The translations under genes and the position numbers were made by a program. The notes under the pieces were generated by a model. That model saw only the letters and a program-made list of their open reading frames with translations. It did not search any database and was not told the origin of the DNA. DNA of 59,742 nt, the filler included. It is 3 parts of 3 records of this genome, joined end to end, with 100 filler letters (N's around TTAATTAATTAA, not from the genome) between each part and the next. Parts side by side here need not be neighbours in the genome. Positions count along the whole stretch, not along the records: positions 1 to 18,732 come from SRR20825019_1282; 2 more parts are not named here. One strand, 5' to 3'. This document shows, in pieces, positions 1 through 38,582 of the stretch (position 1 is its first letter; each line of letters starts with the position of its first letter).

Positions 1-3000
1 GGGGATTCACATGCCTTTTCGGCTTGAGGGTTCATAGACTGTATAATTCCTCCATCATCAACAAGCATGATTGCCACCGACACACTATCGAGAGTGGCCT
101 TGGCCCTCCTGAAGTTAGCATTTGCAGTTCTTTCTGCTACTACTGACTCGGTGATATCCACAAAATTACAAATTATCACTTCATCTCTCCCATCGCCCAG
201 TGTCGCCTGTACTATGTGTATTTCTACCACCGATACTTGATCCTAGAGAGTTGTCAGCACAAGTGGTCATTCCCACACCGACCGAGGCCAACCTTCTCGT
301 CTCCAACGACAATGGTGTGCCCACTGCAAGGTACTGAACTTCCCTCCACCCGAAACGCAGGATGGTAGAAATCCTCCATCTCTCTCATGTGAGGGCCGGA
401 TTTGAATGACTACAGTGTCCATTAGAAACTTTAGACCTTATTGCATCAGCCTAAATACCTGAACTTTGTTGAGCAGATACGAGATGTGCTGTCCCTCCAG
501 AACAACCTTCCTACTAATGTGAAACATCGAATACGTAGCCTCATTTGCCTGGACAATCGCTCCGTCCGTTCGACAGAACATGATGCCATTGTCAGACGTG
601 TCCAGAATAGTCTCAGTCATTCGCTGGTACCGAAGGCGCGTCAGAAAACCTTCCTCAGGTTGTCCAACGTGGAGTATTCTCATTCTCACCTCAATACTGC
701 GAGTCTCAATGCGCAAATCGTCCATGAATCCCATTGAACGCATTACAGCATAAAAGGAGCCCGGAATCCCTGTTCCACCGAGGGACGAAGAAAAAGGATC
801 ATCATTTTCATCCACTTTTCCCTCAAGAGGATGCGTGCTAGTTCCTGCAGTAATCACATCATTAGAGATCGACTTAGAGATGCTTTTCAAAATATTCCCA
901 CCGGTGAACACACGCTTCGATCCTGACTTTGATGTTCGCAGAAACGCCTCACGGTGTCTACCCAAATATGGGCATCTCAATGGATCGGTGAATCTGTTTA
1001 CAAGCATTCGTTCTTCCTCAATCTCCCGAATCTCATCGGCCTCCTCGTCTTCAGGGCCACCCAAGGAATTTGGTTTCCCTAATGAACTCAGTTCTACGAT
1101 CAGGATGCAGTCAGAACAATGTACAAAAAGAAAGGAATATCCGTACGGCGAAGTTGATCCAGTCTATCGGTCATTGATCGGATAGAAGAGACCCTTCGGG
1201 ATTTTGGGGGAGGGGCGACTAGAGAATTATTGTCATCTTCGACTGTATAACCACATCCTCGTGAGTATATAATGCCTCTTTCGTCTAAAGATTATTATCT
1301 CGCCATCCTACCTTCGATATCATCCCGCGAAAGAATGTCGTGAATGTTGTATCCGACAATGTCTTGTGCATTCCCTTTGGAGTGATCGAACAACTCATCT
1401 CCTCCATGCACAGCCTCTACAACACCAAGTGGACTAATCAATACTATGCAGGCAGCAGAACCGGCACCGTTTCCAAGTTTCATCTCATCCACAAGTACTT
1501 TCAGAACCTGTGTCTCAACGTCCACACTCTTGTGATCACTGATGTCAACAACCTCGGCCACGAAAAAAATATCCCCACCTTTAACCTTCCGTCAGCATAC
1601 CAAAGGAACATGACACTAATTTGCACCATACCGTTTTCAATCTCCCGCACCAATATCCTCGCTGGAAACACCCGCCCCCCTCGGCATTTTCCAACAAAGT
1701 CTTGGGGAGATCCAAGCGTCTTTGGCTTTCCTCTTCTCAGATAATTGCGCAGGTGCATATCGTGGTCACGAGCATATCTATCGGGCATTAGGGTAGTGAT
1801 GTTCGTGTAGCCGTCGAACAAACTCTGGCGAACAGCGTGGTCATCATACTCAAAAAGTTTCAGGAGGGAAAGGTTCGCGTATTTGATGGTGCCGAACGCA
1901 TCTGCAATCACTACACCGCGTCCCTGAAGTGGCCACGGTTAGCTTTAGGTACATCCATCAAAGGCACGCGCGCACTACCTTCATGAGGCCCATCGTGAAC
2001 ATTGCCGAGAAGGCAATATCTTTAGCCTCCATCTTATCTTCTCTTATTGCCTGCTTTACAGTGTCTGCCATCTGTAGGATACTCCCGCTTCCATCGGAGT
2101 ACTCGTCATTGCCAAGGTTTGCGGATCGTCCGGATATTACTGCCGTGAAGCGCATATCTTCTAAATTGTCGGAGGTTGACGAAGCATTATGCCTAAAAAG
2201 CATGATCGATGTGGATATTTCGTCTCCGTTCTTATGCACAAACGCTGCGGTGAAATTTGTGTTCAAAACTCTGAATTACGCATATGTCAGTCGGCACGAG
2301 CCAAGGGCCGAATATTCACTCACGTGGGTTCTCTAGTCCGCAAATACATCTCTATATACTTGTCATGGTACCGCTTGTGCGGCATAGCCACCAGCATGTT
2401 GATTTTCTAAAATATTGGTTGTTAGCACCCTCTTCTTCACATCCTTTGGCGAAGCAGAATACCTGGCCAATGAGCTCGCTTGGTGGGTATCCCGTTATCG
2501 CTTCCACAGCTTGGTTAGTTTCTGAGTAGCAAGTATTTAGTATTCACAGACTTGGGATACTCGGATTCTAACCGACCTGTGATGACTCCTGTCGCGTCGG
2601 CAGTTATCGAAGCATACCCACTGGACTCCATCATAGCACCTATAATCCTCGCGTCCACCCCCATCAACCGTGCGTCCTCTGTTTCAAGCATCTGTCAGTG
2701 ACTCTAATGTGGTCCGCCACGATGCACCACCCACCAGTCTCCTGCTCGTGTGATGCTGCTTGAAGAGCCAGCAGTTGCGACCCGTCGTCGTCGCTTGCGG
2801 CGATTGCCTCGAATTTCCCTTGAGCGCCGTAGATAGTCGTTTCTGTTGGCTTCCCACTCTGCAGGTGCTTCAGGGTTTCCTCCGAGAGGATATTCGAGAT
2901 CTGCGTGAAATATATATCAACTAAAGAACGTTTCGTCTCATCTTCTGACATACTTGTGGGTTGGACTCCGACGCATTAGCTGAACTGAGGAGGGGTATGC

Positions 3001-3148
3001 TCTGTTTCCCGGCCACGTTACTCCACTCCACCTCGCCCTCCCTCGACACCACCGCTGCGTCAGGGAGTGCCTTGAAGACAGACTCCCATAGCAACTCGGG
3101 CTGTGCCTTCACCTCGCGGTCTAAAGACATTCGCGAGTTGTCTGCCAT
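1..3148 (-). CDS. Multi-exon, multi-PAS domain protein (at least 6 PAS-like repeats, 2 FixL-like); 3' end runs off the contig
   Basis: ORF fragments join through short GT..AG introns (e.g. 2901-2953). PAS-like segments: WESVFKALPDAAVVSREGEVEWSN; NQAVEAITGYPPSELIGQ|KINMLVAMPHKRYHDKYIEMYL; VIADAFGTIKYAN...LMPDRYARDHDMHLRNYL; IVLISPLGVVEAV; ETILDTSDNGIMFCRTDGAIVQANEA; ATLDSVSVAIMLVDDGGIIQSMNPQA. Confidence 0.8.
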
Positions 3149-4635
3149 CCTCGTATATGGATGAGACTAACTTAAATGCCTATGTATAAGTATACACAGC
3201 TCCACAGTCGTTCCAGTGGCAACAAGGGGAGAAGGCGTGCCAAAACGAACGACTCTTGGGCTGCAGGGTCATAATACACAGCTGTACGTGACCCACGCTG
3301 TGCGTTATCACACAACAAGTCACTCAGACTGGCGGCAGTAGGAATGGGGCTCATATTGTGCCCCATCCTCCCCTGAATAACCCAAAGGTCGCTGAACACA
3401 ACGAAGCCCCTCATGAAGTGTCACAAGAAGTGCTTACAGCATACGGTACACTGGGGCCACATCGGTGGCTGTTCAGGTACCCGGACTGGGCCGCAACTAA
3501 TCGGTATCTTCTCGACGAACGGTTTGGTGACTCGTGACTACCGCCAGATTGCGGCCTGGTTACTGGCCGGGTGCCCTGTTGGCCCGGGCAGCCACGCCCC
3601 CGGCCGGCAGGAGCGCGACCACGCCCAACAGCCAGAGCAGTCAGTGTGGTGCTGGAGGTGCACAGCCGGGCCCCGTCAGGCGACTGCTCTCACGATTGAG
3701 GACAGTCAAGAAGCTAAAGCGGAATGCACAGCCTCTGCACGGACCGTGCTGGGGCACCGCCACCGGGAGGCTAGACCGAGGCTGGGGGGTGCCTGGTGAG
3801 GTGTATGTGAGGTACACGGCACTAATGGTCACGTGACGGCTCAGTGCCAAGCCCTGAATGTCCTCGTCGGACAGTTGAGTTATTACCTCATCGGAAAAGT
3901 AATGTCTGATAACAACAGGGGGTGCAGCAGCCTTCGCCCGCACTAATGAGGTCTTTCCCCGATCTGGATGAAATAATTACTCCGAAATAATCATACTATG
4001 GTGCCTATTCACTCCGGCGATAGGCAAAGTGAGAGCCTTTATTGCACCTCTCCACAGTATTGATCTGAGCCAGATTACACCCGAGAACTGAACCAGAGTG
4101 AGTGCCGGGCGGGCTCATGCGAGCGTGTGTCTATGGGGAGGATCCAAAAGGAATCGGAGCAGTGAGGTGATAGCGGTCCGCATGGTAGCCAAGGCAGGTT
4201 CCCGGATGTAACTGAGAGATGTGAGTTGGTGACGTCACGGATGTTGTTTGGCCTCTCCATGCCTCTGGTAGGCACTGCCGTAGGGCACGTGACACGGGCT
4301 TATCATGGCCCGATTATGAAACAGGCGCAAGGCGGCCACCAAAACCTTCTTCAAGCCGGGTGCCAGCTTCCTGTGCCAGCACTCAGAGCACAGACAGTCC
4401 TTTTGAGTCTTTGTCCGAACTTCACTATCGAAAGAGTAGGACAGGGCACCAGAAGGGCAGCCCGTGCAGCCGGTGGGCCCCACCCAAAGCGGCTCGGCCG
4501 GTTACGCCCTCATTATTGTGGCTCGCTGACTGACTTCGTGACCGAGAAAAGGGCAAGACCCCCTCGCATGAAATACAAGACATGAAGCACGTATCGTCAT
4601 ATTCAAAGAACAAGGCTTGAGACCAGTTTCGCAGC

Positions 4636-7600
4636 ATGGCGCCCGTTATAAACTTTCACACCCTAGCGAAACGGTACGACAAAGGGCTTGTTGTACTTGA
4701 CCGCCAGCACGGTCGGGTTGTCTCGTGTAACCCCAGAGCTCTATCCATGCTTCAAAAAGGTGATCAACCAAAGCTGTGTGGGGTTGATGATGGTTTGACT
4801 TTCTCCTAGGTGAACTGGACACAGATTGGATGTCCTTGGTTGTCGAGGACCCAGGCCTCGGTATTTCCTATCAGCCTGAGAGCAATGACAAGAATGCGTT
4901 CCCTAAGTTCTTCAAGAGCTTTGAAGGTGAAACAGGTATGCTTGTTTGCACCATGCATCAAAAGTAGACGGGGACCTAACTCCCGCAGGTGGGCGCATCG
5001 TGACATATGAGGCTCCGAAGTCTGGACGGAAGCCCAGTCCTGGCATTCAGTAAGGGCTTTGGCTATAGCTGCGTAATATCGATGCTTATATTTCCTCAGG
5101 CTGCACACGCGTCTATTTTCTGTCAAACATGGGTCGTATGATTTGATTTGTGTGGTATTGGCCACGCCTACAAAGGCCCAGGTATGGATACCCCTCTGGG
5201 CATAGTGGAGCGATCTAACAACAAACAGTTTGCCCTCCACAGTGCCAGCATCAAGCTCAAAGCAGCAAAGTCAAGTGCATCAATGCTCAGGCAAAACTCC
5301 AGTCACGTCGTATACGACATCACGACACGAGTGATTTTGGGATCCCAGAAAGCTGCTGACGCACTGTTGGGACTGCCGGCGGGAGGGTATGTAGTGTTTG
5401 TGAAAGAGAAAGCCTGTGAGACTGACCTTGAGGATAGACTGGTTGGCCGCACGTTGCTCTCGATATGTGAGAGTGGTCTAAGCGACTCCATTTTTAACGA
5501 AACCAGCGCAAAGTACCACGAAGACTCAGGCATGCATTATTTTGAAGTCGGTTCGGGTGTTGGTTACTTAAGGTATTGTCTGACCATTCTCCTAGGTGAA
5601 TGCGGTTAAGAGTGATGGGACTGTGTTCCCTATGCGGGCCTGGCTCCGTGCAGAAATACCTGGCATGATCCCAAGATGTCGCGTGCTCTACCTAGAAAAT
5701 ACAGAGTGAGTTCCATCCACTCGCGCCCCGGAAATTTATGTATCGCTCATGGCTCGTAGGGACCAAGACTTTTTGTCGAGCATGATCAAACAAATCAAAC
5801 CCTTCTATAAGGCATGTTATCTCCTGCATTTTGTAATATCCACGTTCCTAATGGTTTGTACAGACCATCTTGGAGGGCCATGGTTTGGAGGGATACATTC
5901 GTTGTTCTGACGAAGGTGTAATTCTCGCTTCAAGTCGCTCTGCTCTAGAGATTCTGAAGCCAGGAGCCCCACCGAATTCTGTACGCATAATTTCTTTCGG
6001 AAGGGCTTTTGTTTCCATCTGACAAATTACAGGTTCTGGTTGGTGAGAGTATACACAGCCTATTAGAGGGCCTCGACTTGGTTTCTATGCCATGTGGTCG
6101 CTTTGCTCGCATCGGAAGCAAGGACGCTGATGTTGACGTGCAGTCGTTTAGACTGGATGCGATAGGCATTCCCGAATTGAGAGACCAAGGCCTCGAAACA
6201 GTGGAAATCTTTGTTAGGGATGTGTGGGTAGGATCGGGAGGTAGGGATTGAGGTTTGGGTATTATGCCACCACTAATGGACTTGTGAAGATGCCCAAGCT
6301 CACACTGAAGTCCTGGATGAGTTCGGTAGCCTGGCACGGTACGGTGTGAGGGATAAGACAATTCTTTTCTTTTGACTTCATCGTATCAGGGCAATGGACG
6401 AGGTGATCATTGTATGCCTTCCAGACATGTCTATTTCTGTCGTCGGGGGCGCCATTGGGGAGCTTCTTGGTACGCAACAAAACTGAAAAATGGGATTGCC
6501 TCTGAGCGACTGATTGCTTTACTATCTAGGATTCGATGCTTCGGAGATTGAAGGCGAAAACGTCAACGTGCTAATGTCTCGATATCACCGAGAGGTACCC
6601 AGTTGTCTGTGTAAAATGGCTGGAGAGTTTACGCGGCAATGTGTCCAGAATCACGACAAGTACGTGGATGAATATCGTAGATCGGGAATCCGCAAACGCA
6701 TTGGGCATCCGGCCTCTGCCCCATTGTCATGTATCCATAAGTCAGGAAAGACGGTCGATCTCCTAGTAGAAGTGAAGAGCTTCATGATGGATGGCGTTGA
6801 AATGTTCTATGGAACCCTTCGTTCTGTTGCCTCCGGACGTGATGCGGCCATATCCCAACTTCACTACGCCAACGAGGCGTTCAGTAATGTTATTTCGAAT
6901 TCGCCCAGGTGAGTCCTTCGTACCCTCAAATATGATGAGTTCTGCTGACGAGGTCCGGGACTGTTGTTCAGTGCGTATGTGGTTACCGACGGGAACATGA
7001 AAATCATTGAAACAAACGAGCATTTCTCCCAAATGGTTTCCATTACGAGCCCAGAAATGCTGTCCGGAAAAGAAATTGTGAGACTAGATGGAGATTTCTA
7101 GTCAGTTTTAAGTCTGTACTAACGTTTGCCCAGACCGACCTTTTTGATATCCATGATGCGGTTAAAGGTATTAAGAACAACATAGTGAACCGGATTCCAT
7201 TCCCGAATAAGAAAATTGCAACTTTGGCATGTAGTGCACGTAGGGTGCAAGGAACTAGGTTAGGAATTTTTGACATTGTGAATGGAATTGCTGACCACAG
7301 CGGTGATCTTTCACAGGTTCACTGCTCAAGTAGAAGTACTTCTCCTCACGGATCTGAAAGCTTCAAAAGATCCTGAATCTATCGAATCGTTGCTGGGCCG
7401 TGTCCGCTTCCTTTGTAATGTAAAGAACCTCGAGACTGAGTTTGAGTCGAGGCAGGAGTATGAGGAGAGGTGCCGTTTATTTCCGTTCGTGTATGCCTCG
7501 TTTTGACATCGCTGTTCTAGCTGTACGCGCCTTTCGGCCCTCATAAACTCGGTGGATGACACGATTCTTGTTGCTGATATTTCCGGAACGATTCAAGAGT

Positions 7601-10600
7601 GTAACACTTGCGCGTGCCGAACATTTTCGTACGGAATAATGTCCTATAGGCTGAACAAGGATTTAACGTTACTTTGTGTTTAGGTATGAGAGATCGGAGT
7701 TAATTGGGATGGAAGTCGAAGATCTTTTGCCGATGGAATTTCGAGAGAAGCACAAGAAGGCCCGCACTTCATTTCGTATGTTGAGGCGAAAGACTACCAT
7801 GGGAAGTCCCATCACTACCGAGGTGAGTCTTCAACACGAAGAAAGGGTATTTGTTGAACATTTGTAATATTCCGCAGATCTTGCTCAAAAGCGGGAATCG
7901 GATGAATGTGGATGTCATCTTGAATGAGATGGTGGTTTCTGAAAATGAGTATGTGGACCACACAGGGCGGTTGACGGCGTGCTTCTAACCTATTCGTCAG
8001 GGTAATGCTCGTGGCTCTTGTGCGCGACGTGTCCATTCGGGTTGCCTTTCAAGATGCTATGAAGACCAAAGAGGCATCGCTGAGGAACCAGATCAATGGA
8101 TCCAGCAGTCCAGTCATCGTCGTAGATAGCCGGGGCCAAATCACCATATTTAATCCCGCAGCTTGTTCGCTCTTCAAGTATGAAGAGAAGGATATCATCG
8201 GCAAAAATGTTGATATCTTGATGGGAGGAGAAGACAAGCAAAACCACATGACATACATGGAAAACTACTTGGTGGGTACAGGTATTGTAGATACTTTCAA
8301 CGTTGCACCAACAATCCCTCCAGAGAACGGGCGATAAAAGGGTAGTGGATAGTATGCGCATTTTCAATGGTTACGCAAGTGACGGTGAAAAACTTACTCT
8401 CGAAGTCCGTGTGAGCGAAAGTCTAATTGCTGGAGTTCATCTATTCACGGGTTAGTTTGGGCCTTGTCTATGTGCGGCGAACATGAGATAGCTGACTCGT
8501 GTTCTAGCCGTTTTGAATGATATATCGGAGCGTATGCGCAATGAAGAGGCCATTTCCAAGAGCGAAGAACAGATGAAAGTCCTGGTTGAGCACGCCTTCG
8601 ACGGAATCATCGTTTCAGACAAGACCGGAATAATTCATACCTTTAATCCTTCTGCCCAGATTATGTTTGGCATCAGCGAAGAAGAGGCTATTGGCAGCAA
8701 TGTTTCCATACTTATGCCTAGTCCGTATTGCGAGGAGCATGACTCTTATATACAAGCATATTTGAAAACGTCGCGGAAGAATGTCCTTGGTAAGTGCAAT
8801 GCACCGTGATCTCTCCAAAGGACCCTCACTCTTCATGGACTCAGGATATCCAACTAACCTGAGAGGAAGATCCAAAAATGGAGCCACCTTCGATTTAGAG
8901 ATGAATTTGAGTGAAATCACAGTAGGGAGCTCGGTTCTGTTCACGGCAGTCGTCAGGAATGTTTCAGAACAAGTTGCAGAGAGTGCCCAGTGGCTTGAAA
9001 TGTCTTCGATAGTCTCAAAGCAGGTATGAAACATATCTGATAGATGGGACCATGTCACTAAGTGGGGTTTATGATGGTAGATCAACTGGGTAGAGGAGGG
9101 TGTTATGATTGTCAATAACAAGATGAAGATGTGTGTTGTTAATAATGCTCTTAAGAGCATGGTGGAAAATGAGAAATTGAAGAACAAGCCGTTAACTGAT
9201 CTAATGGTATGGCCATGAAATACCCAAAATGCGGGGTCTTAACGTTGTGCTTAGGTTCTTGGTGATAATGACCGGTGCAAAGCCGCTTTTACAGCCTTCA
9301 TGAAAGAAATCGGTGAGATATCTGGATCTCGGCAGCTTAAAGACCGAGTCGCGCAATCGAAGGTAGGGAGTCTGGTGCTTTCGTATATATATGTTCCCCA
9401 ATGTCTACTTGCAGATCATCGGAGGTCAGCCTCATGCGGTTATTTTGAAGACGAAGGCCGGCGCCAAAGTTAAGGCGTCAATGAGGGTGTATCCTAGCCT
9501 GGAAGGTATACTTGCGCTCTCTTATGATTTGAAGCGCTCACCCGTTATTCAGGCCTCCATGAACTTGTTGGAATCTTCAAATTAATCCCTATCCCGGCAA
9601 AGCAGCAAGCAGATCCTTCCGTCGGTAGTGAGCCCGCCAATAGTACCACGAAGACCGCATCCCCCAGGCTTAGGAGTCCTCAGCTGCCCTCCCTGAACAT
9701 AGAAGAAGACCCGTCTGATCAGGCATCTCTCATTGTAATGCGACCGGATGTGAACTCGGTATGTTCTATCAAACGAATTAACTTCTCAGTGACTGACGGG
9801 GGTAATTTTGGCGCAGCATACAAAGAAGAAGAAATCCCCCTCAATGATATCACAAGCTTCTGCTGAACTCGCTCCACCCATGAAGGCTACGAATGTGGGC
9901 AGGCGGTCAGCAAGCTACACCGGCAGGGAGACGAAGAAGGGTCACCATATGCCTCCTCTTCAAGCCCCCAACCGACAAGTTCATGACCTCATATCACCCA
10001 TGAGAAGAACGTCAACTGCTGCACTATCCGCTGGATCACCACGAGTAGCACTCAAGACCAAACAGATCCCCTCACATAGTGCCTGGGAGACAGCCACGAC
10101 ATCAAGTAGTAATGGCGACACCACTTCGAGTGGAAGCGTGTCTCTCCAAGCATATATGGAGGACACACTTCCACTCGGCCCTCGTAAGACCGAGGTTTTG
10201 CTTGAGAAGGTAGAGTCTCCTAACTTTTTGTTTTGGCCGATGACTAAAATTTCCACAAACAGTTCTCAAATGATCCGAAGAAGGCACAGAAAGATGAGCA
10301 CATCGCTCAGGCAGCCATTGGTGCTTGGGCTGTCGGTGACATCAAGGCCAAGATTGCCAGTCTTCCTTGGAGTATGAAGCGGGTGTGCAATGCCCTTGAG
10401 GACAAGTCCGTATTTTCCTATTTGTAACGTTTTCATGGAACTCACAGTCTTTGGCAGGATCGAAGAATCTCGAAAGAAGGGGGCGAGGCTGGAGCCGGCG
10501 AAACTAATCCGTGAAATGCTTAAACTGGTCCTCAAGATGATGGGCTGGGAGGTGGCGAATGTGTTTGAGTGGAACGCTCTCCAACAAACACTCTCGGTGA

Positions 10601-11096
10601 GTCGGGAGAGAATGGTTTTACTATGCACTGCGTCCTGACCAGGTTGAGTCAGACGACCGCACTGTATGTGAGCAGTGACGATAGAAGGTACAGAGTCTTC
10701 GAAGAAAAGACTCATGGTATCGAGTTCCGCCTTGGTGTTGGCATACCAGGGTTGGTTTTCAAATCGAAGGAGCCCATGTGCGTCGTAAACATGAGCCTAG
10801 AGTCGGATGAGATTTATCCGCGTGCCGCTACTGCGCGCGAGGCCGGTCTCAAAGGATCGATGGGATTGCCACTGCCCATGGGACCAGAGGTGAACGGTGA
10901 AAGGAATATGATAGGTGAGTCAAGGCTTATGATATCTGCCGGGTATGGCCATGCGCTAACTTGGTGATTTCTAGGGGTGGTGGAGTTTTTCTCATCGGCG
11001 GAGCAGACCGCGGACCGATCGCTTCTTCGCATGCTGGAAGTGGTCACAGATCTTATTGGGCAAGTCTTCATGGATGCCCGGACCACTTTGGGCTAA
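4636..11096 (+). CDS. Multi-exon protein with ~9 PAS repeats, a Ser/Pro-rich linker and a C-terminal GAF domain
   Basis: ATG at 4636 (MAPVINFHTLAKRYDKGLVVLDRQHGRVVSCNPRA). Repeated PAS motifs, e.g. VIVVDSRGQITIFNPAACSLF and DGIIVSDKTGIIHTFNPSAQIMFG...LMPSPYCEEHDSY. GAF-like GIPGLVF...YPRAATAREAGLKGSMGLPL...GVVEFFS. TAA at 11094-11096. Exons were joined manually through ~50-nt introns. Confidence 0.75.
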
Positions 11097-11148
11097 TTTC
11101 AAGGATTTGGCTACCAAGCGTACCTAACACCATCAGTGTAATGAAGGT

Positions 11149-14100
11149 TTATTTCCTGGAGGTGCCGCGTCCACTCGTGCTCGTCCGAGAGGTGTCGGGT
11201 CCGTCCATTCCAGTATCGGATGTAGCCAGGGCAAAGAAGAAATGTGGGGTACTGACAGGCCGGCCCTCCTCATAATCATCTTCCAAACCCTTCCCCTTTC
11301 CCTTGCGTTTAAACGTAATCCCTGTTTTCTTGGCTTTTGCATTCTTCAGGTCACCTTCCTCTTCCGAACTTGTCTCCCACATCTTATCCTCGGGCTGAGG
11401 CACCTCAATGTCACGCATTAGATTATCGTCATAGTACTCAGGGAAAGCCGTCATGCCCTCCAGCTTATGCGCGCGGGCACGGATATCGATAACAGTCCGG
11501 GCAGGCTCCTCCTTTGGAGGCTCCTTCACTCGCGTGGCTTCCACCATTGTCTCGTCAATAACGTGATTCATCAGCCCCAGCCTGCGTCTGGGATGTCCCA
11601 CTAGAGCCCAGATCGCTTTGACAAGCGTGAAGAAGTGGAAACCGTTTTCATCAACCCCCATTTCTCGTTTCAATAGTCGGTTGACTATAGGACGTGTCTT
11701 AGGATCACGGTACAAGGTATGAAGACGGACCGTAGCAGCCAGGACGCGGCAAGGATTGCAACAAAGTTCATTCGCGACATAGTATGAGCTTATGCAACAC
11801 GATACTGGGGCCTTCATAATCCGGAGAAGTCCATCGAGTCCTCCGATCACCACGTAGGAAAGACCGACAAATGTGATGACAATCGTAGAGAGAGTCACCG
11901 TAGTTAGGAGCTCCGATCCCAGAGTACTCAGATCGTCACTTGCGGAATCGAATATCAGACCACAAATGACGACTACAACAAGGCAACACATGAGGATGCC
12001 ATCAGCCAGATTGTCGAATTTGTAGCGGTACGGCTTATACCACAGATGCAGTGCAAGAAAGAACACAGAAACAAACAACATGAAATACAGCTGGTCAGCT
12101 GGGGCCAGCACTGCCAGGGCCGCACCCAGTGTCACAAGGAACTTGAATGACATCGTGACAACCTCCCAAAAATAGTATTGCGGCCGGTAGCTGTTCCACA
12201 GCACTCCGTAACGATCCCTGATCTGCGGATTGAACTTCGACTTGGCATGGTTGAAGCACACAAGGACCACAATGGTGACGGGTATGCCAAATGACAGGAC
12301 AAATATTCCCAGGATGTTGATGGGAAGTAATGCTATCCATGTGCTGTCTGTAAAGCACTCGATGGAAGGCTCCGCAGTCAAGACATACACGCCCGCTTCG
12401 GAATCGGTTTGCCCGCACCCATACAGCTCCACAACGGTGGCATGCACGACCACGTATAATAGAATAAGCAACCAGCAGCTGAACATCACTGTGGTATTTC
12501 GCAAGCGAATATGAAACTGGGCCATCCACTTGACCAGCTCCTGGATAACATCCCACGTATTGGTTGCGTCCTCGACCTCAACGTGGCTCAGTTCCGTCCC
12601 TGGAATCTCATACATTCTTTCCCGGTTCTGGCGCGCCCGATCCGCCTCCGTTTCCAATTTTTTTGTCTCCAGTTTGACATGACCCTTCCAGTAAAATGTT
12701 GCCGAGAATGCCACCTTAGCCACGGTTGCGCAGAGGTAGATAAATATACACGACACGAAGAAAAATATGGGGAAGAACACCCGGATAAAATACCGATCCT
12801 TATACATCTCGCCCACAGTCTTAGCGTCTTCTGCGCACTCCATCGAAAACAAGTCATTGACGTCAAGGGTAGTAATGGCGAAAGCGCTTGAGACCGTGTT
12901 AACTGTCGAAGGCCATCTGGTCTTGATGTTGAACAGGATCACAGTAAGCTGCAAGAACTTGATCAGTTTTGAGACCATCTCCGCGGTACGGTGGGGTATG
13001 GAACGATCCTCGGCGCGGTAGCCATTGTCATCCACGATATCTCCAGCTTCAATGCCGGTGTGATTAGCCTGCTGACTACAGCTCTTCGCACAGATTATAA
13101 TAAGAAAGCATGCAACGAGCAGAAAGCTTCCCAACACCATGAGGGTGTACGTCAACCACAATGGTGAGCTTGCGTCCGGGCAGGCAATGCACTTGCCCTT
13201 GGAACGGAAAAAGGTTTTCTGACACAAGCGACACGCCGTGCCCTCATAACCTGTCTCGCACGGACTCTGGTATGTGGTAGTCGACATAGTCCGAAGGGGA
13301 TCTGAGTGGATCACCGAGAGCGTCGTGGTGTTCTCGGGGGCATTGTCTTTCACCCAAACATCACCCGCGTCCACCTCAGGCGCATTTGGTTTCCCTCCCG
13401 GACAGGATGATAAGGGAATGCACGACTGAATATTGAACACATTTCCCGTGTCAATCCATTTTCCCTTCTCAGTCTCGGGCCAGGACTGGCCCTGGCTGCA
13501 CTTGGCGCCGGTGGGCGGGCACGGCTTACACGCGCGGCCTTCGTGTGGCGCGCCGTAGGTATCCTTGTTACATTTGCACGCGAGGATATGAATCGATCCT
13601 CTTGGAGACCACGAATTTTCAGGGCATTTCTTGCACACCGGCAGACCCTTCACGTCCGAATAGGTCTTCTCATCGCACTGGGCACATCGGAGCTGTCCGG
13701 TCAAGGACTGATACTGTCCAACGTCACAGGCCACGCACTCCTTCATGCCAGGGTTCGTGGCAAATGTCCCTGCAGGGCAGATTGCGCATTCAGCCGTGCC
13801 GGGCTTGCTTGCATGATAACGGAGAGGGCATTCGACACAAAAATCAGTTCCGGTTGCGTTCTGGAATGACCCAGGTGGACATGGCTCACTGAGGAGAGCG
13901 TGTTAGTACAGCACATCAATGTATCATAAGCCCGGGGAATTCCTACCAATTTCCCGCCCCGGCCTTGACGGCTTTCGTGCCTGCCGGGCATATCTCACAC
14001 TGGGACAGCGAGACACCGCCCCAGATAGGAAGTTGGTAGCGAAATGGGCACGGATCACAGCTGGTCTGACCAGTCAGACTCTCTATACATGAATTCATGT

Positions 14101-18732: not shown

Positions 18733-18832
18733 NNNNNNNNNNNNNNNNNNNNNNNNNNNNNNNNNNNNNNNNNNNNTTAATTAATTAANNNNNNNNNNNN
18801 NNNNNNNNNNNNNNNNNNNNNNNNNNNNNNNN
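18733..18832. other. Artificial contig spacer N44-TTAATTAATTAA-N44
   Basis: N runs flank a six-frame stop linker; composition and taxon change abruptly across it. Confidence 0.99.
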
Positions 18833-20515
18833 TCAGACGATAAAAAAGTCATTTTTTCAATGGTCGGTGTTTCGAAAAGCACCCCGCAGGGAAAACAAAT
18901 CATAAAGAATATCTATCTCTCGTTTTATTACGGAGCAAAAATTGGAATCATTGGTCTAAATGGTTCTGGAAAATCTACAGTAATGAAAATTATTGCGGGA
19001 TTGGATAATGCCTACCAAGGAGATGTTGTTTTCTCTGATGGATATACAGTCGGTTACTTGCCACAAGAGCCTGAGCTCGATGAATCCAAAACGGTGAAAG
19101 AAATCGTAATGGAAGGTGCACAGGAAACTGTAGATGCTCTTAAGGAATTCGAAGAAATCAATAATTCATTCATGGACGAAGAAATCATGAATGATCCTGA
19201 TAAAATGGATAAGTTGATTACTCGCCAAGGTCAAGTGCAAGATCGAATTGATGCGTTGGATGCTTGGGAGTTGGATACAAAATTGGAACGAGCGATGGAT
19301 GCCCTGAGATGTCCACCTGACGATCAGAAAATCGGAACACTTTCCGGAGGAGAAAGAAGACGTGTCGCGCTTTGCCGTTTATTACTTAAAAATCCAGATA
19401 TTTTATTGTTGGATGAGCCAACCAATCACTTGGATGCTGAGTCGATTGAATGGCTTGAGCAGCACCTACAGCAATATGCAGGAACCGTGATCGCTGTAAC
19501 TCACGACCGTTACTTCCTTGACAATGTAGCTGGTTGGATTCTTGAATTGGATCGTGGAGAAGGAATTCCATGGAAAGGAAATTATACTTCATGGTTGGAA
19601 CAAAAAGGAAATCGCCTGAAAGAAGAGGAGAAAACAGAGTCGAAACGCCAAAAAATGCTTGCACGTGAGTTGGAGTGGGTGAGAATGAACCCAAAAGGAC
19701 GTCACGCGAAAAATAAAGCACGGATCGCTAACTACGACAAAATGCTTTCAGAAGACAGCAAGTCTAAAGAAGATATGTTGGAAATGCCAATCCCGAATGG
19801 ACCTCGATTGGGAAGTAACGTGATTGATGCAGTTGCCGTTTCTAAAGGTTTTGGAGATAAATTACTTTATGGAGATTTGAATTTCAAACTTCCACCAGCG
19901 GGAATTGTTGGAATTATCGGACCAAATGGTGCCGGTAAAACAACAATTTTCAAAATGATTATGGATGAATTACAGCCAGATAGCGGACAATTTGAAGTCG
20001 GAGAGACGGTGAAATTGGGGTATGTAGATCAATCTCACGAAGATATCCATCCAGACAAAACTGTATTTGAGGTAGTTTCAAATGGACTTGAGTACGTAGA
20101 AATTGGGAATCAAAAAATCAATTCACGTGCATACCTTTCTAAGTTCAATTTTGCAGGATCAGACCAAAATAAAAAAGTTGGAATCCTTTCTGGTGGAGAA
20201 CGAAATCGCCTTCACTTGGCAATGACCTTGAAAATTGAAGCAAACGTGCTTTTACTCGATGAGCCTACAAATGATATCGACGTAAATACCTTGCGTGCAC
20301 TGGAAGAAGGAATTCAAAATTTTGCTGGATGTGCTGTGGTAATTTCTCACGACAGATGGTTCTTGGATAGAATTTGTACACATATTCTCGCTTTCGAAGG
20401 TGATTCTGAAGTGTATTGGTTTGAAGGATCCTATTCTGAATACGAAGAGAATCGTAAAAAACGCCTTGGCGATAGTGGACCAAAGCGAATTCGTTACAAG
20501 AAATTGATTAAATAA
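18833..20515 (+). CDS. ettA: Energy-dependent translational throttle protein EttA (ABC-F ATPase); start codon just off the contig
   Basis: Two ABC domains ([43 protein letters not shown]); frame is open from the contig edge ([10 protein letters not shown]). Confidence 0.95.
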
Positions 20516-20748
20516 TGGGAGAACCTTCAAATGATCCACTGCACGGGAAAACACTAGAGTTTATTTTGAACGAACTAGTGAAAAATCTCGGGTGGAAACA
20601 CATGGGGGAATTGGTTCCAATTAATTGTTTTTTAAGCGATCCAAGCATAAAAAGTAGTTTGAAGTTTTTGAGAAAAACACCATGGGCAAGAGCCAAAGTG
20701 GAAAAAATGTACATCGAACGATTAGTTCAGTTTTTAGATAAAAAATGA
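20515..20748 (+). CDS. VF530/DUF2132 family small protein
   Basis: [10 protein letters not shown]...INCF...[21 protein letters not shown] signature. Confidence 0.9.
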
Positions 20749-22202
20749 GTGTAAGAAATTTAGAACCAAGTGGATTGTGGAATCATTTTGCCGATTTGAA
20801 TGCGGTACCTCGACCTTCGAAAAAGGAAGAGCGTGTGATTCAATTCATGATGGATTTTGGAAATAATCTAGGATTGGAAACAATTCAAGATAAAATAGGA
20901 AATGTAATTGTTAAAAAGCCTGCTTCAAAAGGGATGGAGAACCGAAAAACGGTAATTCTGCAATCCCACTTGGATATGGTGCATCAGAAAAACGCGGATA
21001 CTGAGTTCGATTTTGATTCTCAAGGAATTGAAATGAGAGTAAATGGAGATTGGGTAGATGCTAACGGAACAACGCTTGGTGCGGATAACGGAATTGGTGT
21101 GGCCGCAATTATGGCTGTATTGTCTTCTGAAACTATTGAGCATCCTGCAATTGAAGCCATGTTTACGATTGACGAGGAGACTGGAATGACTGGAGCGATG
21201 CAACTCGATCCATCGAATTTCTCAGGTGAGATACTATTGAACTTGGATACTGAAGATGATGACGAATTATCGATCGGATGTGCTGGTGGTATAGATACAA
21301 ATACAGAATTTCAATACAAAGAAACTGATATTGAAGAAGATAGCAGTTGTTTTGAAATCAAGATTCGCGGACTTGTTGGTGGTCATTCAGGAATGGATAT
21401 CGATAAAGGACGTGCGAATGCGAATAAATTAATGAATAGAGTGTTAATGCATTTGGCTTCAGAAATGAAGTTTCAACTTGTGTCGATTGATGGAGGAAGC
21501 TTGAGAAATGCCATTCCGCGTGAATCATCAGCGGTGATTGCAATTAATCATGAGTTCGATGGTCAACTTGAAGTAGAATTCTATGCAATTTCCGCATTGA
21601 TCAAAAAGGAGTTCGAGAGAATCGAAGAAAATTTAAGCATGACGCTTGCGCCAACAACTGATGCAAAAGGAGCGGTTCCAACAGTATTGGCAGAAAAGAT
21701 TTTTAAAACACTGGCTGCCGTTCACAATGGTGTGTTCCGAATGAGCCCAGATATTAAAGGATTAGTTGAGACTTCTTCTTCTTTAGCACGCGTGATTGTT
21801 GGAAATGGAAAGTTTTCGACGCAATCGTTACAAAGAAGTAGTGTTGAATCGACAAAAACAGAAGTAGCCCAAACTGTGCGCGCTCCTTTTGATTTAATGG
21901 AATGTGACGTGGTGCAAAATGGAGACTATCCAGGATGGCAACCAAATCCAAATTCGGAAATTCTAACGATTATGGCTGATTTGTACAAAACTTCGTTCAA
22001 TGAAGAGCCACAAGTTAAGGCATGTCACGCAGGACTAGAATGTGGGATTTTACTCCAGCACTTGCCAACTGTTGATATGATTTCATTTGGACCGAATATC
22101 CGTGCAGCTCATTCACCAGACGAAAAAGTGCAAATTTCTTCAGTGCAAAAATTCTGGGGGTATTTTATTGAAACTCTCAAAAGAATCCCAAGTCGGGTAT
22201 GA
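20745..22202 (+). CDS. pepD: Aminoacyl-histidine dipeptidase (M20 family)
   Basis: [50 protein letters not shown] motifs. Confidence 0.95.
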
Positions 22203-22423
22203 GCAGTGGATCAGGAAACCATGAATTGGTAGACTTGGCAAATGCACGAATGCCATACGGGAAATATGAAGGTAAATTACTTTTGTATCTACCCGAAAAT
22301 TATTTAGTATGGTATAAAGGAAAAGGATTTCCCGCAGGTAAACTTGGTCGTCAATTAGAATTGATGCTTGAAATTAAAACTAACGGATTAGAAGAGTTGA
22401 TTCAACCGTTGGTTAAGCGTTAA
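22199..22423 (+). CDS. DUF3820 family protein
   Basis: MPYGKYEG...LPENYLVW...GFPAGKLG...EIKTNGLE signature. Confidence 0.88.
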   Translation: MSSGSGNHELVDLANARMPYGKYEGKLLLYLPENYLVWYKGKGFPAGKLGRQLELMLEIKTNGLEELIQPLVKR

Positions 22424-22462
22424 CGACTTGTTGCTTAGCGGCAATAAACGTATTTTTAAGAA

Positions 22463-23032
22463 ATGGAAAATGATCGTTTTGAATATCTCAATACGAATAG
22501 GTTATTACTTCGAAAGATAACACCTGAGCTTTATCAATTGGTTTTCAGAACCTTGAGCGATAGTAATCTCATGAAGTTTTTTGGTTTTTCAACAAAAGAG
22601 GAACTTCTAAATGAAAGAGTCAAATTTTTAAAAGGAGTGGCGACACACAACAAGTCGTTTCTATATTTTCAATTGATTGAGCCGAAATCCAAGGAAATAA
22701 TAGGTTGGTGTGGATTTCATACATGGTATTTAGATCATTCCAGGGCCGAAATTGGCTACGGACTTTATTCTGACGAATTTAAAAATACAGGATTGATGTC
22801 GGAAGCAATGACTAAAATTGTCGAGTTTGGTTTTTCTAGCATGAAATTGAATCGAATAGAGGCCTTTATTTCTCCGTCGAACGAACCTTCGTTGAAGCTC
22901 GCACGAAAATTCGGTTTTAAAAACGAAGGATGTTTAAAGAGCCATTACCTATTTAATGGTACGTTTGAAGATTCTGAAATTTTTGGTTTACTGAAGGCTG
23001 ATTATGAATATGCTGTAAAGAATAGCGTTTAA
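22463..23032 (+). CDS. GNAT family N-acetyltransferase (RimJ/RimL-like)
   Basis: LNTNRLLLR...AEIGYGL...GLMSEA...LNRIEA...N.PS..L..K.GF..EG. Confidence 0.88.
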   Translation: MENDRFEYLNTNRLLLRKITPELYQLVFRTLSDSNLMKFFGFSTKEELLNERVKFLKGVATHNKSFLYFQLIEPKSKEIIGWCGFHTWYLDHSRAEIGYGLYSDEFKNTGLMSEAMTKIVEFGFSSMKLNRIEAFISPSNEPSLKLARKFGFKNEGCLKSHYLFNGTFEDSEIFGLLKADYEYAVKNSV

Positions 23033-23073
23033 AAATTAAACGTTTCACTCATTTGAATCGTTATGTCATAGAT

Positions 23074-24495
23074 ATGATAAGAAAATTGGTTTTTTGGATC
23101 GTGTTTTTTACTTCGACCTGTTTTGGTCAAGAAGAAATAGAGATTGGAACTAAAAAATTCTCCAGTGCTGAATTGAGAAAAGATTTTGAGCTAGTTTCAT
23201 CTACACTCCGTGAAATTCATCCTGGCGTTTACCATTTTATTTCGGAGGATAGTTTGAATCGACTTTCGGAGCAATACCTTGCGGAATTGAATGAACCGTT
23301 AACGGAAGAAGAGTTTCATGTACTTGTTCGCCAATTTGTTCGCGTGATAGGTTGTGGACACGTTACCGCAAAACCATCTGAAGATTGGTACGAGAAAAGA
23401 AGATTGAATCCTTACCTGATCCCGTTGAATGTGTATATTATTGACAATGAACTTTATGTCAAAGATGTGCTGGATACAACGGTTAATATTCAGTCTGGAT
23501 GGAAAATTTTATCCATCGATAATGTATTGTCTCAAGAAATACTATCTCAACTAACCGCCATTCATGAGCACGATGGATTTAATGAAACATTTGAAATCAG
23601 AAAAATAGAAAAGAGCTTTCAAACTTATTATTTGTTTTTGACAGGTGTAAAGCGAGAATTTGAAGTTGAGCTTGAGTCTTTTGAAAAGGATACTATTTTT
23701 GTAAAATTAGAGAAGGCGAGAGGAAGACGAATCAGGGAAGATGCGAATTTTGATTTCCAGAACAAATTGGTGTCAAAATCTAACGAGTTTGGAATTTTAG
23801 CAAAAGATTCAACAATTGCGGTTCTTGACTTGAATTCATTCGATTCAAAAGGATATAGTAAATTTTACAAAAAAGGATTTAAACTTCTCGAAGCACAAGA
23901 GGTTGAGACCTTAGTTATTGATCTTCGTGGAAATGGAGGTGGTTACTTTCCGAATGGAAATCAACTTTTGAGGTATTTGCTTCCAGATAATTTCACAACC
24001 AATTTTTGGACGAAGAAACATAAGATTAAAAGATCATCTTATTTATCGATGGATCCTGGAAGTAGAGTTACACGAAAGTTATTTAATTTAATGCCTGACA
24101 AGGATAAAGCTGATCCGAATAGAAACTATGAAATTCGTTACCGAAAAATTAAGAAGAATCATTTCAATGGAAAAGTGTACGTTTTAACTGACGGAGCAAC
24201 ATTTTCAATGGGGAGTTACGTTGCTTCTAAACTTCAAAACTATTCAGATGCAATTACCTTGGGTGAAGAAACGGGCGGTGGAGAGGCTGGATTCAATGCT
24301 GTGCTCTCGTGGAGTTTAACTTTACCTTCAACGAAAATTCGAATTTCAATTCCAAATTATCACATTGATCTTCAGGTACAGACGGAATTGGAAGGGAGAG
24401 GAGTGATGCCAAACATTCCAATTCACTATACGATTGAAGATAAAATCAATCATAGAGATCTTGAAATGGAATATATTTTCAATAATTTACGTTAA
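23074..24495 (+). CDS. S41 family peptidase, secreted
   Basis: Signal peptide; LVIDLRGNGGG, TFSMGS, GEETGG, GRGVMP motifs. Confidence 0.88.
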   Translation: MIRKLVFWIVFFTSTCFGQEEIEIGTKKFSSAELRKDFELVSSTLREIHPGVYHFISEDSLNRLSEQYLAELNEPLTEEEFHVLVRQFVRVIGCGHVTAKPSEDWYEKRRLNPYLIPLNVYIIDNELYVKDVLDTTVNIQSGWKILSIDNVLSQEILSQLTAIHEHDGFNETFEIRKIEKSFQTYYLFLTGVKREFEVELESFEKDTIFVKLEKARGRRIREDANFDFQNKLVSKSNEFGILAKDSTIAVLDLNSFDSKGYSKFYKKGFKLLEAQEVETLVIDLRGNGGGYFPNGNQLLRYLLPDNFTTNFWTKKHKIKRSSYLSMDPGSRVTRKLFNLMPDKDKADPNRNYEIRYRKIKKNHFNGKVYVLTDGATFSMGSYVASKLQNYSDAITLGEETGGGEAGFNAVLSWSLTLPSTKIRISIPNYHIDLQVQTELEGRGVMPNIPIHYTIEDKINHRDLEMEYIFNNLR

Positions 24496-24718
24496 GAATA
24501 GTTTAAAAAACTTAGTAGAAACTAAGAAATTGCAAAGTTTTTTTGAGTTTTGTAAAAACCTTCATTTTAACGGTTAATCTGCTGTAAAACATGCAGTTGT
24601 CTATCAAGGCTTAATCCCTTCATTAACATAATTTGTTTACACAAGAACATTTTTTTTGATTTTTTCGTAACATTCTGAGAGAGACGGACGTAAATGCCTT
24701 TGTATAAAATTTGAAGTC

Positions 24719-24907
24719 ATGCAAATAACAAATTTAAATATGAACAACAGAGTCCAATCAGCAAAGTTTAAATTGTCTCAACACAGAGCGCAAGGATCTA
24801 AAAGTAATCTCAACATCTTTCAAGTCGCAAGGCTAATGGATACAGTCCAGAACAGAGTAGAAGATGCTTCGATTAATAAAAAATCCATTTTCTTTTCTCT
24901 TAACTAA
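24719..24907 (+). CDS. Hypothetical small protein (62 aa)
   Basis: ATG ORF in a ~520-bp gap, followed by an intrinsic terminator; no family recognised. Confidence 0.45.
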   Translation: MQITNLNMNNRVQSAKFKLSQHRAQGSKSNLNIFQVARLMDTVQNRVEDASINKKSIFFSLN

Positions 24908-24928
24908 GGGAAAGAGAGTACATATTTT

Positions 24929-24950
24929 AAGGTCGCCTCGGTGACCTTTT
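24929..24950 (+). terminator. Intrinsic terminator
   Basis: AAGGTCGCC-TC-GGTGACCTT hairpin followed by a T-rich tract. Confidence 0.7.
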
Positions 24951-24974
24951 GTTGTTTTTAGTAGTTTCTTTTTG

Positions 24975-25022
24975 TAATTTTGTTTTACAAATGTGTAAAT
25001 GTAAACTAATTACAAATGTTAA
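24975..25022 (+). promoter_or_regulatory. Bacteroidota -7 box (TAATTTTG, 24975-24982) plus two TTACAAATGT operator-like sites
   Basis: TAnnTTTG match; TTACAAATGT at 24985-24994 and 25010-25019, the second overlapping the XRE ATG. Confidence 0.6.
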
Positions 25023-25399
25023 TTCAGGATCGTATTAAGCTAATAATGAAATCTCAAGGAGCAAACGCTTCTGAATTCGCTGATACGATTGATGTAAAGA
25101 GATCTAACTTAAGCCACGTTTTAAGCGGTAGAAATAAGCCTAGTCTGGATTTTCTAGCTAAAATTATTAACCATTATCCAAATGTTAATGCAGCTTGGTT
25201 AGTCACTGGAGAAACATTACAAGGAGATTTTAGAGGAGGAGAGCAGACCGAACAAAGTACAGTTAAAGAATCTGAAGCTTCCGTGAATAAAGTAAGCCAA
25301 CGAAACCAACAACAAGAGAGTACATCTCAAAAGAGAATCACTAAAGTAATCGCGTTCTACTCTGACGGAACCTTCGAAACCCTTTCTCCTAGTGAGTAA
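25016..25399 (+). CDS. XRE/Cro-C1 helix-turn-helix transcriptional regulator
   Basis: [29 protein letters not shown]...WLVTG HTH; C-terminal [12 protein letters not shown] motif typical of Bacteroidota XRE proteins. Confidence 0.9.
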
Positions 25400-26567
25400 T
25401 GATCCCCGAAGCGATCAATTCATCTTCTATATACAGTGCTGCAAATTGTCCAGGAGTAATTCCGCGTTGAGATTCTGCAAAGAATAAGTAAACTCCATCT
25501 TCCAATACCTTTACAACTGTTTCTTGAAGTGATTGGCGGTAACGTATTCTAGATAAGCATTTTATATTATCTATATTCTCAGCATTGTAATGTTCGCTTA
25601 CAAAATGAAGATCTTCAAAATTGATCTTTAGTGCATATTTGTTTAGACCTGGATGGTTGTCATTCTGACCTGTGTAAACAATATTATTTTCCACATCTAA
25701 ATCAATTACAAAAGAGGGATTTGGTCTTCCGCCTATATGAAGTCCTTTCCGCTGTCCTATTGTGTAATAGTGCGCGCCTTGATGTTTTGTTACCTCGGTT
25801 CCAAAGCTTGATTCATAGTGAAATGGTGCTGCCAATGCTTTTACATTTTCTATTGAAACATCCAATGACTTATAGTCGTCAAACGTCGGATGGTCAGCAG
25901 CGACTTCTATAATCGATCCTTCTTTTGGCTTCAGTTGTTGTTGTAAGAACTGTGGGAGGCTAATCTTCCCAACGAAGCATAATCCCTGTGAATCTTTTTT
26001 ATCAGCGGTAAGTAGTCCGTTTTCCTTAGCGATTCTTCGAACTTCTGGTTTTAATAACTCACCAATAGGGAATAAGGCTTTCGAAAGCTGTGCTTGATTC
26101 AGTTGGCAAAGAAAATAGGATTGATCTTTATTCGGATCGGCGCCAGCGAGCAATCCGAAAGTTCCGTCTGAATGCTCCGTTCTTCTGCAGTAATGTCCTG
26201 TTGCGACGTAATCAGCGCCTAGATCCATTGCTGCTTTTAGAAATACGTCAAACTTAATTTCTCTATTGCAAAGTACATCTGGATTAGGTGTTCTTCCTGA
26301 TTCGTATTCTGAAAACATGTAATCAACAATTCGCTCCTTGTATTCTGCGCTTAAATCGATTACCTGAAAAGGGATTCCGAGCTGCTGGGCAATCAATAAG
26401 GCATCATTTGAATCGTCTATCCATGGACAATCATCCGACAGCGTAACGCTCTCATCGTGCCAATTACGCATAAACATTCCAATCACTTCATATCCCTGTT
26501 CTTTTAACAGGTACGCCGCTACACTTGAATCAACTCCGCCTGAAAGACCAACTACAACTCTTTTCAT
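25389..26567 (-). CDS. mnmA: tRNA-specific 2-thiouridylase MnmA
   Basis: [57 protein letters not shown]. Confidence 0.97.
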
Positions 26568-26571
26568 GGTG

Positions 26572-26579
26572 CAAAATTA
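26572..26579 (-). promoter_or_regulatory. Bacteroidota -7 promoter box of mnmA (near-leaderless)
   Basis: TAATTTTG located 4 nt before the ATG on the minus strand. Confidence 0.65.
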
Positions 26580-26614
26580 CTACTTATTTAAAGAAAGTAT
26601 GGCGCATTTATTGA

Positions 26615-26651
26615 TTTACAAATGTGTTTCATTGCTATATTACATTTGTAA
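26615..26651. promoter_or_regulatory. Two further TTACA-WW-TGT(AA) operator-like sites
   Basis: TTTACAAATGTGT at 26615-26627 (identical to 24984-24996) and the palindrome TTACATTTGTAA at 26640-26651. Confidence 0.55.
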
Positions 26652-26732
26652 CTATAGAGAATTGAAACTTTAACAATTGTTTTGAACGCGCTTTTATATC
26701 CTGCGGTACAATTTTTGTAATTTCACTTTTGT

Positions 26733-27482: not shown

Positions 27483-27512
27483 AGCACTCTATTTAAATTG
27501 CACTCTATTCTT
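27475..27512. terminator. Probable bidirectional terminator between convergent genes
   Basis: AAGAATAGAG ... CTCTATTCTT inverted repeat. Confidence 0.45.
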
Positions 27513-27527
27513 TAGTTAAGTCAATTT

Positions 27528-27848: not shown

Positions 27849-27909
27849 AGTAAATAGTTTGAACGAATATAATTAAATCGACGAAAAACAGCTTCTTTTT
27901 CTTGTGCGA

Positions 27910-29207: not shown

Positions 29208-29281
29208 GAATTCTTCAATATGTGTGTCTGCTAAATTAGTTCAAACGCTGGAAATTATGTCAATTTCACACCAATTTTAGC

Positions 29282-31222: not shown

Positions 31223-31230
31223 TAAATTTG
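31223..31230 (+). promoter_or_regulatory. Bacteroidota -7 box upstream of carB
   Basis: TAAATTTG matches TAnnTTTG. Confidence 0.55.
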
Positions 31231-38571: not shown

Positions 38572-38582
38572 CCCGCTTTCCT

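Follow-up and report, generated by a model that had tools for sequence, protein, structure and literature searches.

The DNA analysed here, a window of 59,742 bases, is made up of three contigs of unlike composition and is not a single molecule; the contigs are joined by spacers of the form N44-TTAATTAATTAA-N44 at positions 18733-18832 and 34957-35056. The first contig (window 1-18732) is eukaryotic, continuous and free of N, and it alone bears the gene pair that is the subject of this work, two divergent genes encoding long arrays of PAS domains. The left gene has its ATG at 3148 on the minus strand and the right gene at 4636 on the plus strand, so that the two are transcribed apart from a common spacer. 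The right ATG is the first one downstream of an in-frame stop (4618-4620), and the stop codon of this gene ends at 11096. From ATG to ATG the spacer measures 1487 nucleotides (nt; 3149-4635), of which 3159-4635 is intergenic, has a GC content of 56% and could serve as a bidirectional promoter. A divergent pair of intron-rich multi-PAS genes from a microbial eukaryote had been proposed in an earlier note on this DNA, and the existence of a divergent, expressed pair of FixL-type PAS-array genes is confirmed.

In both strands the frames that run from stop to stop are broken every 100-400 nt yet encode PAS-like peptides. Exon chains were built with a dynamic-programming script whose score combined codon usage, intron length and GT..AG sites; a term for a CTRAY branch point was added later. 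A self-trained splice model was also tried and was dropped, having over-split the genes into 54 and 26 exons. Transcript data came from two public runs, X1 and X2, of one sample and one study (their kind is not on record), with 38% and 23% of the sampled words, respectively. Contigs of these runs aligned to positions 1-11300 were at least 99% identical to the window and skipped short segments. Because the skipped segments are introns and the loose ends are oligo-like, we read these contigs as complementary DNA (cDNA); the loose ends at 3158 and 9453 resemble what we take to be the SMART template-switch oligo, the former as its reverse complement. There were 42 cDNA joints, 15 of them listed, and the support per intron given here refers to those listed. 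All 15 are of the GT..AG type (CT..AC for the minus strand), with lengths of 47-69 nt. The final models, which were adjusted to fit the cDNA joints, hold every one of them, that is 9 of the 13 introns of the left gene and 6 of the 30 of the right gene. The removal of spliceosomal introns in cDNA bears out both the intron-rich structure and the microbial eukaryotic origin suggested earlier.

The part of the left gene that codes within the window (15-3148, minus strand) comprises 14 exons, 803 codons and six PAS-like units. A single cDNA contig of 3473 nt starts at the oligo (3158), takes in every left-gene exon, the pieces 15-241, 292-409, 459-623, 1312-1576, 1630-1922 and 1978-2270 included, and continues for 1027 nt past window position 15; since one cDNA contig spans it, the left gene is a single transcript that continues off the contig. 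The 5' end of the mRNA directly abuts the oligo, leaving no spliced leader and a 5' untranslated region (UTR) of about 10 nt (3149-3158, minus strand, the cDNA 5' end being at 3158). At its other side the gene exits the window via a GC donor at 14-15 (AAG/GCATGT, the slash marking the splice point). As the earlier note had it, the gene is truncated, and it is the end of contig 1 that cuts it, not a chromosome end. Nine letters of this GC donor recur at 5809-5817 in the right gene, where we infer a 52-nt GC-AG intron (5812-5863) because its removal restores a PAS hairpin.

Nine single letters set the cDNA contigs apart from the genomic contig, as do an insertion of 3 nt behind 1047 and three letters at 1091-1093. 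The sites of difference lie at 1033-1093, 2120, 2204, 7006, 10522-10523 and 11084-11184, and may reflect an allele or a closely related strain.

The right gene (4636-11096, plus strand) was modelled with 31 exons and 1607 codons plus the stop, and its modelled introns measure 47-70 nt with a median of 54. The introns supported by the listed cDNA joints are 9506-9552, 9759-9816, 10210-10262, 10406-10457, 10597-10652 and 10915-10974. Upstream of 9415 the model places 24 introns as best guesses, made ab initio with PAS homology as a guide; the exception is exon 8508-8789, whose ends agree with the cDNA piece 8507-8788. Contigs of X1 fill every bin from 4525 to 11300, and the longest record listed runs from about 8507 to beyond 11300. 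Regarding the possibility, raised earlier, that transcripts might split the models into several small genes, the left gene is one transcript throughout, and the right gene is continuous in the listed cDNA from about 8507, the part 4636-8507 being joined by the model. Neither run has cDNA cover over 3394-4524, and X2 also lacks it over 4525-9425.

One X2 cDNA contig begins at 9453 (plus strand) against an oligo-like tail, and in that run cover of the right gene is limited to its final 1.8 kb. Either the first strand was truncated (3' bias), or an internal start yields a short GAF-only product.

A FixL-type PAS profile, a hidden Markov model (HMM) built from 1039 domain instances of 156 proteins, was run on the spliced models and identified PAS-like units in both genes, numbered L1 to L6 and R1 to R9. 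In profile-profile comparison hhalign gave probabilities of 98-99.8% to R4, R6, R7, R8, L2 and L3, followed by L6 (89%), L5 (65%), R2 (49%) and R1 (33%), while R3, R5, R9, L1 and L4 remained at or below 8% and display the N-terminal hairpin signature only. At exon level four units exceeded the curated Pfam PAS (PF00989) cut-off of 22.6 bits, namely R8 (46.2), R7 (41.7), L5 (26.2) and R6 (23.1); the remaining units were sub-threshold. The hairpin signature recurs every 114-148 amino acids (aa) in the right gene and every 113-205 aa in the left, and because of this regular spacing, together with the sub-threshold Pfam PAS matches, the weak units were counted as units. The right gene thus has nine PAS-like units (four clear, two probable and three degenerate) and the left gene six in the window (two clear, two probable and two degenerate). 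The earlier repeat counts of about nine and at least six are fair as upper counts, and the robust counts by sequence comparison are four to six for the right gene and four for the left. The observation that each gene opens with a degenerate unit also stood (hhalign not above 8% for L1 and 33% for R1).

In the left gene, L2 (2189-2619, minus strand) is of the FixL type, with the proximal-His motif, 62.8 bits against the FixL-type HMM and an hhalign probability of 99.1%. L3 (1532-1923, minus strand), also of the FixL type and with the proximal-His motif present, lies nearly all in one exon; it seeded the HMM, and its 89.3 bits hold by construction. L4 scored 1.1 bits with this HMM. L5 (129-593, minus strand) has a clear N-terminal half, possibly keeps its His-containing helix and reached 13.2 bits. 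L6 (15-80, minus strand) is represented by its first 22 residues (E 0.0015, 5.9 bits) and runs past the contig, a loose cDNA end continuing in frame beyond it.

In the right gene, R1 to R3 (4678-6233, plus strand) are degenerate PAS-like units with HMM fragments at 4681-4755, 5596-5649 and 5891-5956; the hhalign value for R3 is 2.6%, and R1 had a sub-threshold match to PAS_8 (19.4 bits). R4 (6397-6789, plus strand; hhalign 98.0%) is of the FixL type and carries an insertion of about 17 aa ahead of the His helix, which splits its HMM match into 9.1 and 16.0 bits. R5 (6904-7410, plus strand) is degenerate, with HMM positions 3-42 matched at 6973-7077 (E 0.0037) and an hhalign value of 5.5%; like R1, R2 and R3 it gives a weak HMM fragment. 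R6 (7555-7937, plus strand) is of the FixL type and keeps the His within an altered flanking motif (46.2 bits; hhalign 98.4%; PAS_8 25.6 bits at exon level). R7 (8104-8425, plus strand; 83.1 bits; hhalign 99.8%) keeps the His and has an Arg that aligns with the one conserved in the family behind the FG loop, and R8 (8597-8924, plus strand; 88.9 bits) has the best-preserved His motif of these FixL-type units. R9 (9090-9557, plus strand) is degenerate and lacks a His at the position of the heme ligand; its HMM fragments lie at 9096-9173 and 9424-9489, its hhalign value is 0.4%, and its status as a unit comes from spacing and the hairpin signature alone.

The clear units resemble one particular subtype of PAS domain. 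A search of the PDB with L3 returned seven matches, all seven of them FixL heme domains, the best being 1d06 (E 1.1e-6) with the proximal His aligned. With R8, the first seven of 20 matches were FixL (1d06, E 1.9e-15) and these were followed by the heme domains of DosP/EcDOS. In the alignments of both units the query His coincides with the His that FixL carries in its H-D-x-Y-x3-Y helix. This F-alpha proximal His is retained in six of the 15 units (R4, R6, R7, R8, L2 and L3) and, by eye, possibly in R5 and L5 too. A LOV motif (NCRF or G-x-N-C) was sought in both spliced models and was absent. The clear units therefore appear, as judged from these alignments, to belong to the FixL/DosP heme-PAS lineage and are predicted to bind heme. 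The gas or redox flavour attributed earlier to these genes agrees with the match of the best units to FixL and then DosP heme-PAS domains and with the kept His, the heme binding itself being a prediction.

Downstream of R9 the right gene encodes a low-complexity linker of 242 aa (9558-10394, plus strand) that is rich in S, A, P, K and T, has a KKKK patch and showed no Pfam family in its exons. The last part of the protein (10395-11093, plus strand; four exons) is probably a C-terminal GAF-like domain of the NLP / bHLH-MYC_N / GAF_2 type. Its main exon, 10653-10913, matched GAF_NLP (18.6 bits against a cut-off of 24.1; E 0.0015) and GAF_2 (14.1 bits against 28.6; E 0.056), both sub-threshold, and had a single match in the PDB (E 0.07), to plant EGL1 in its N-terminal domain. 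The look-alikes that a language model proposed for this exon carry GAF_2, GAF or bHLH-MYC_N, at 0.92, which we take as a lead only. On these signals we regard the last ~177 aa as probably GAF-like, a domain that the earlier note did not mention. The core motif of the domain thus has a sub-threshold likeness to the N-termini of plant NLP (NIN-like) and bHLH-MYC/EGL proteins; unlike in those, it is C-terminal, stands behind a PAS array and has no RWP-RK, PB1 or bHLH partner.

The earlier note, according to which long PAS arrays of eukaryotes are usually attached to kinases, cyclases or phosphodiesterases, had considered that both genes might be ordinary members of a PAS-kinase or cyclase family. 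A Pfam scan (E<=0.1) found no kinase, cyclase, phosphodiesterase, HisKA/HATPase, bHLH or TPR domain in 23 of the 31 right-gene exons and 13 of the 14 left-gene exons; for the right gene this speaks against such membership, and for the left gene the 3' end lies outside the window. The two most hydrophobic 19-aa stretches fall within PAS hairpins, and both proteins are probably soluble.

Relatives of the left gene were collected with phmmer. The piece 1627-1938, which contains L3 and falls mostly in one exon, gave 2609 matches with E<=1e-3 and 55 with E<=1e-30 among 1.84 billion representatives. The top matches are proteins of 1700-4500 aa with 12-13 matched stretches and about 33% identity; those named include the diplonemids Namystynia, Artemidia and Diplonema papillatum as well as Bodo saltans. 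When the R6-R8 block was compared by BLAST, the best matches were multi-PAS HisKA/HATPase kinases, including one from Pseudoalteromonas that one source names FixL; a diatom transcript with five PAS and no kinase also ranked among them. Identities to relatives span 22-36%, with no orthologue among them. Word-based protein searches with the L3 exon and the GAF exon were empty, which is weak evidence, and nothing was found in metagenome contigs with an exact 60-nt pattern and the L3 exon. The source organism is a member of a poorly sampled lineage of microbial eukaryotes. A euglenozoan source is argued against by the lack of a spliced leader and by the dense, short introns, even though the top named matches are euglenozoan.

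The known systems closest in subtype are FixL (PDB 1d06, 1dp6, 1xj2, 8js5) and DosP/EcDOS, with which the clear units share the aligned proximal His and its helix motif. Unlike them, the present genes are eukaryotic and intron-rich, have 6-9 tandem units instead of 1-2, showed no HisKA/HATPase_c or GGDEF/EAL domain and keep the conserved Arg after the FG loop in R7 only. Four giant proteins of Euglenozoa were scanned for comparison (Namystynia P0151, Artemidia P0007, Diplonema papillatum KAJ9436222 and Bodo saltans CUG33156, the last annotated as 'methyl-accepting chemotaxis protein, putative'). They have 9-13 FixL-type PAS domains with about 31-35% identity per unit to those of the locus, and have no catalytic domain in Pfam; they also gave no GAF match. 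The two that are full-length are longer than 3000 aa, and each bears a TPR_TmcB region at its N-terminus, whereas the right protein has 1607 aa and no TPR_TmcB match was obtained in the exon scans of either gene. A kinase-less FixL-type array is also found in the diatom Odontella aurita (P0062, 602 aa, five PAS), with 27% identity over 637 columns of its alignment to the right gene; it differs in being shorter, in lacking a GAF-like end and in being represented by a transcript only. A literature search turned up no paper on protist FixL-type PAS arrays. Nevertheless the suggestion that such a module is not described in this lineage does not hold as it stood, as kinase-less FixL-type arrays occur in diplonemids, Bodo saltans and a diatom: the enzyme-less PAS-array design is uncommon, not unprecedented. 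In Chlamydomonas, FXL (FixL-like) PAS proteins are reported, by Murthy et al. in FEBS Lett in 2012, to bind heme and O2 via the equivalent His.

Taken together, we consider heme-based sensing of gas or redox state, relayed through protein-protein contacts, to be the likeliest function of the two proteins, with a probability of roughly 0.55. They would be the products of two separate nuclear genes, both expressed and transcribed away from a 1.5-kb spacer, with many short introns of the GT-AG and, occasionally, the GC-AG type, and each would consist almost entirely of PAS domains in tandem. Heme in several of the units may bind O2, NO or CO, or shift its redox state, and the resulting conformational change would be relayed through the chain of PAS units and the GAF-like end, so as to reach partner proteins. 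The output would then consist of altered oligomerisation or binding and not of an enzymatic activity of the proteins themselves, and the degenerate units would most likely act as spacers or dimerisation surfaces. Such an absence of enzymatic output fits the nearest eukaryotic arrays, which are likewise PAS-only.

Several points weigh against this interpretation. As to the models, the ab initio version was exact at eight of the 15 listed joints (five of six in the right gene and three of nine in the left), and 24 of the 30 right-gene introns have no match among the cDNA joints listed, so that the details of R1-R5 may change. As to output, eight exons of the right gene (8-36 codons each) and one of the left (27 codons) were outside the Pfam scan, and the left-gene tail beyond the contig, up to 1027 nt of mRNA, could encode an output domain. 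The GAF call is sub-threshold, and AlphaFold2 on the main GAF exon alone gave no usable fold (pLDDT 38). Finally, nine of the 15 units are weak or degenerate, and Arg is found at the conserved column after the FG loop in R7 alone, this position being occupied by F in L2, Q in L3, I in R6 and T in R8, with R4 carrying an insertion. In FixL this Arg is implicated in O2 signalling. Judged by these residues, an O2-specific, FixL-like behaviour is doubtful outside R7, and as the Arg column is kept solely there, ligand specificity cannot be inferred.

The last two points, the many degenerate units and the loss of the Arg in five of the six His-bearing ones, also favour the reading that ranks next, in which the arrays are heme-free scaffolds or adaptors, or bind another small ligand, and the FixL-like motif is an inherited relic; the related euglenozoan giants, which have no known function, point the same way. 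Yet six units, from two proteins with just 21-24% identity, retain the His together with the motif around it, which points to selection on the pocket, and the closest solved relatives are exclusively heme domains. We regard this reading as possible although unlikely.

It is improbable, in our estimate, that the left gene encodes an ordinary PAS-enzyme sensor whose catalytic domain (kinase, cyclase or GGDEF) lies in the missing 3' part, the right protein being accessory. The earlier note had allowed for an output domain in the missing end; the cDNA contig does extend beyond the window, and a small one could fit; the best three-PAS matches of the right gene moreover include bacterial FixL-type histidine kinases. 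However, the extension also has to hold the rest of L6 and the 3' UTR, which leaves at most about 255 codons and so too few for HisKA, HATPase and receiver together, and the scanned eukaryotic relatives are PAS-only.

The pair had also been envisaged as a co-regulated, heterodimeric gas or redox sensor on a bidirectional promoter. PAS domains commonly dimerise, the genes diverge around the 1487-nt spacer, and both are represented in both cDNA libraries, X1 and X2. On the other side, a repeat search of the spacer gave nothing notable, just two 14-nt matches at chance level and no conserved element; the proteins are not close paralogues; and the searches gave no relatives in which conservation of the layout could be checked. 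Alignment of the left with the right protein is confined to the FixL-type units, and since the identity is just 21-24% the genes are not a recent inverted duplication and, by this comparison, are old paralogues at most. Co-regulation and heterodimerisation are a conjecture, because the libraries come from one sample and the spacer has no notable repeat, and we hold this reading to be quite improbable; the head-to-head arrangement may be mere neighbourhood. More speculative still is a kinase-less sensor in which the heme-PAS chain would integrate O2, NO or redox signals and pass them to an NLP-type GAF-like end that binds a second small ligand or a partner, with the left protein as heteromeric partner; its signalling logic would differ from that of bacterial FixL/FixJ and of animal HIF or bHLH-PAS, and we would give it little credence in this specific form. 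An artefact, that is bacterial PAS genes or a misassembly, can be rejected: although two bacterial contigs are present in the window, one of them 100% identical in its tested part to a bacterial genome, they are set apart by spacers, positions 1-11100 have no match in that genome (G001), and the frames are interrupted every ~150 nt by introns that are absent from the cDNA.

Returning to heme-based sensing as the preferred reading, its interest lies in the fact that oxygen and gas sensing by microbial eukaryotes outside animals, plants and fungi is largely unknown. Enzyme-less FixL-type PAS arrays are now seen in the diplonemids, in a kinetoplastid, in a diatom and in the present organism, protists of several lineages unrelated to one another, and the locus provides two expressed genes with structures partly verified by cDNA and with several single-exon units that are directly expressible. 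Should heme and gas binding prove true, a non-enzymatic PAS relay would look like a recurrent eukaryotic solution; should they prove false, the pair would be one more lineage-specific PAS expansion.

Convergent with the right gene is an open frame of 917 codons (11149-13902, minus strand) that encodes Cys-rich repeats of the ephrin-receptor-like kind together with a membrane region resembling that of TRP channels. About 52 nt separate its stop from that of the right gene, and one cDNA contig spans both, possibly through an unstranded merge. A word-based protein search with residues 230-917 found no relatives, which is weak evidence.

Scans of the window for Rfam families and tRNAs found none. 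The other two contigs come from different bacteria. Contig 2 (18833-34956) has a GC content of 35-40% and belongs to a second bacterium, different from the source of contig 3; it encodes EttA, a beta-Ala-His dipeptidase, an S41-like peptidase and the large subunit of carbamoyl-phosphate synthase (CarB), and is merely 68-71% identical to G001, across two short pieces. G001 is a complete prokaryote genome of 4.2 Mb. Contig 3 (35057-59742) is bacterial, and its tested part, 35057-53999, is 100% identical to G001 C1:2184101-2203043; its source is probably a bacterium that was co-cultured with the eukaryote or contaminated the assembly.

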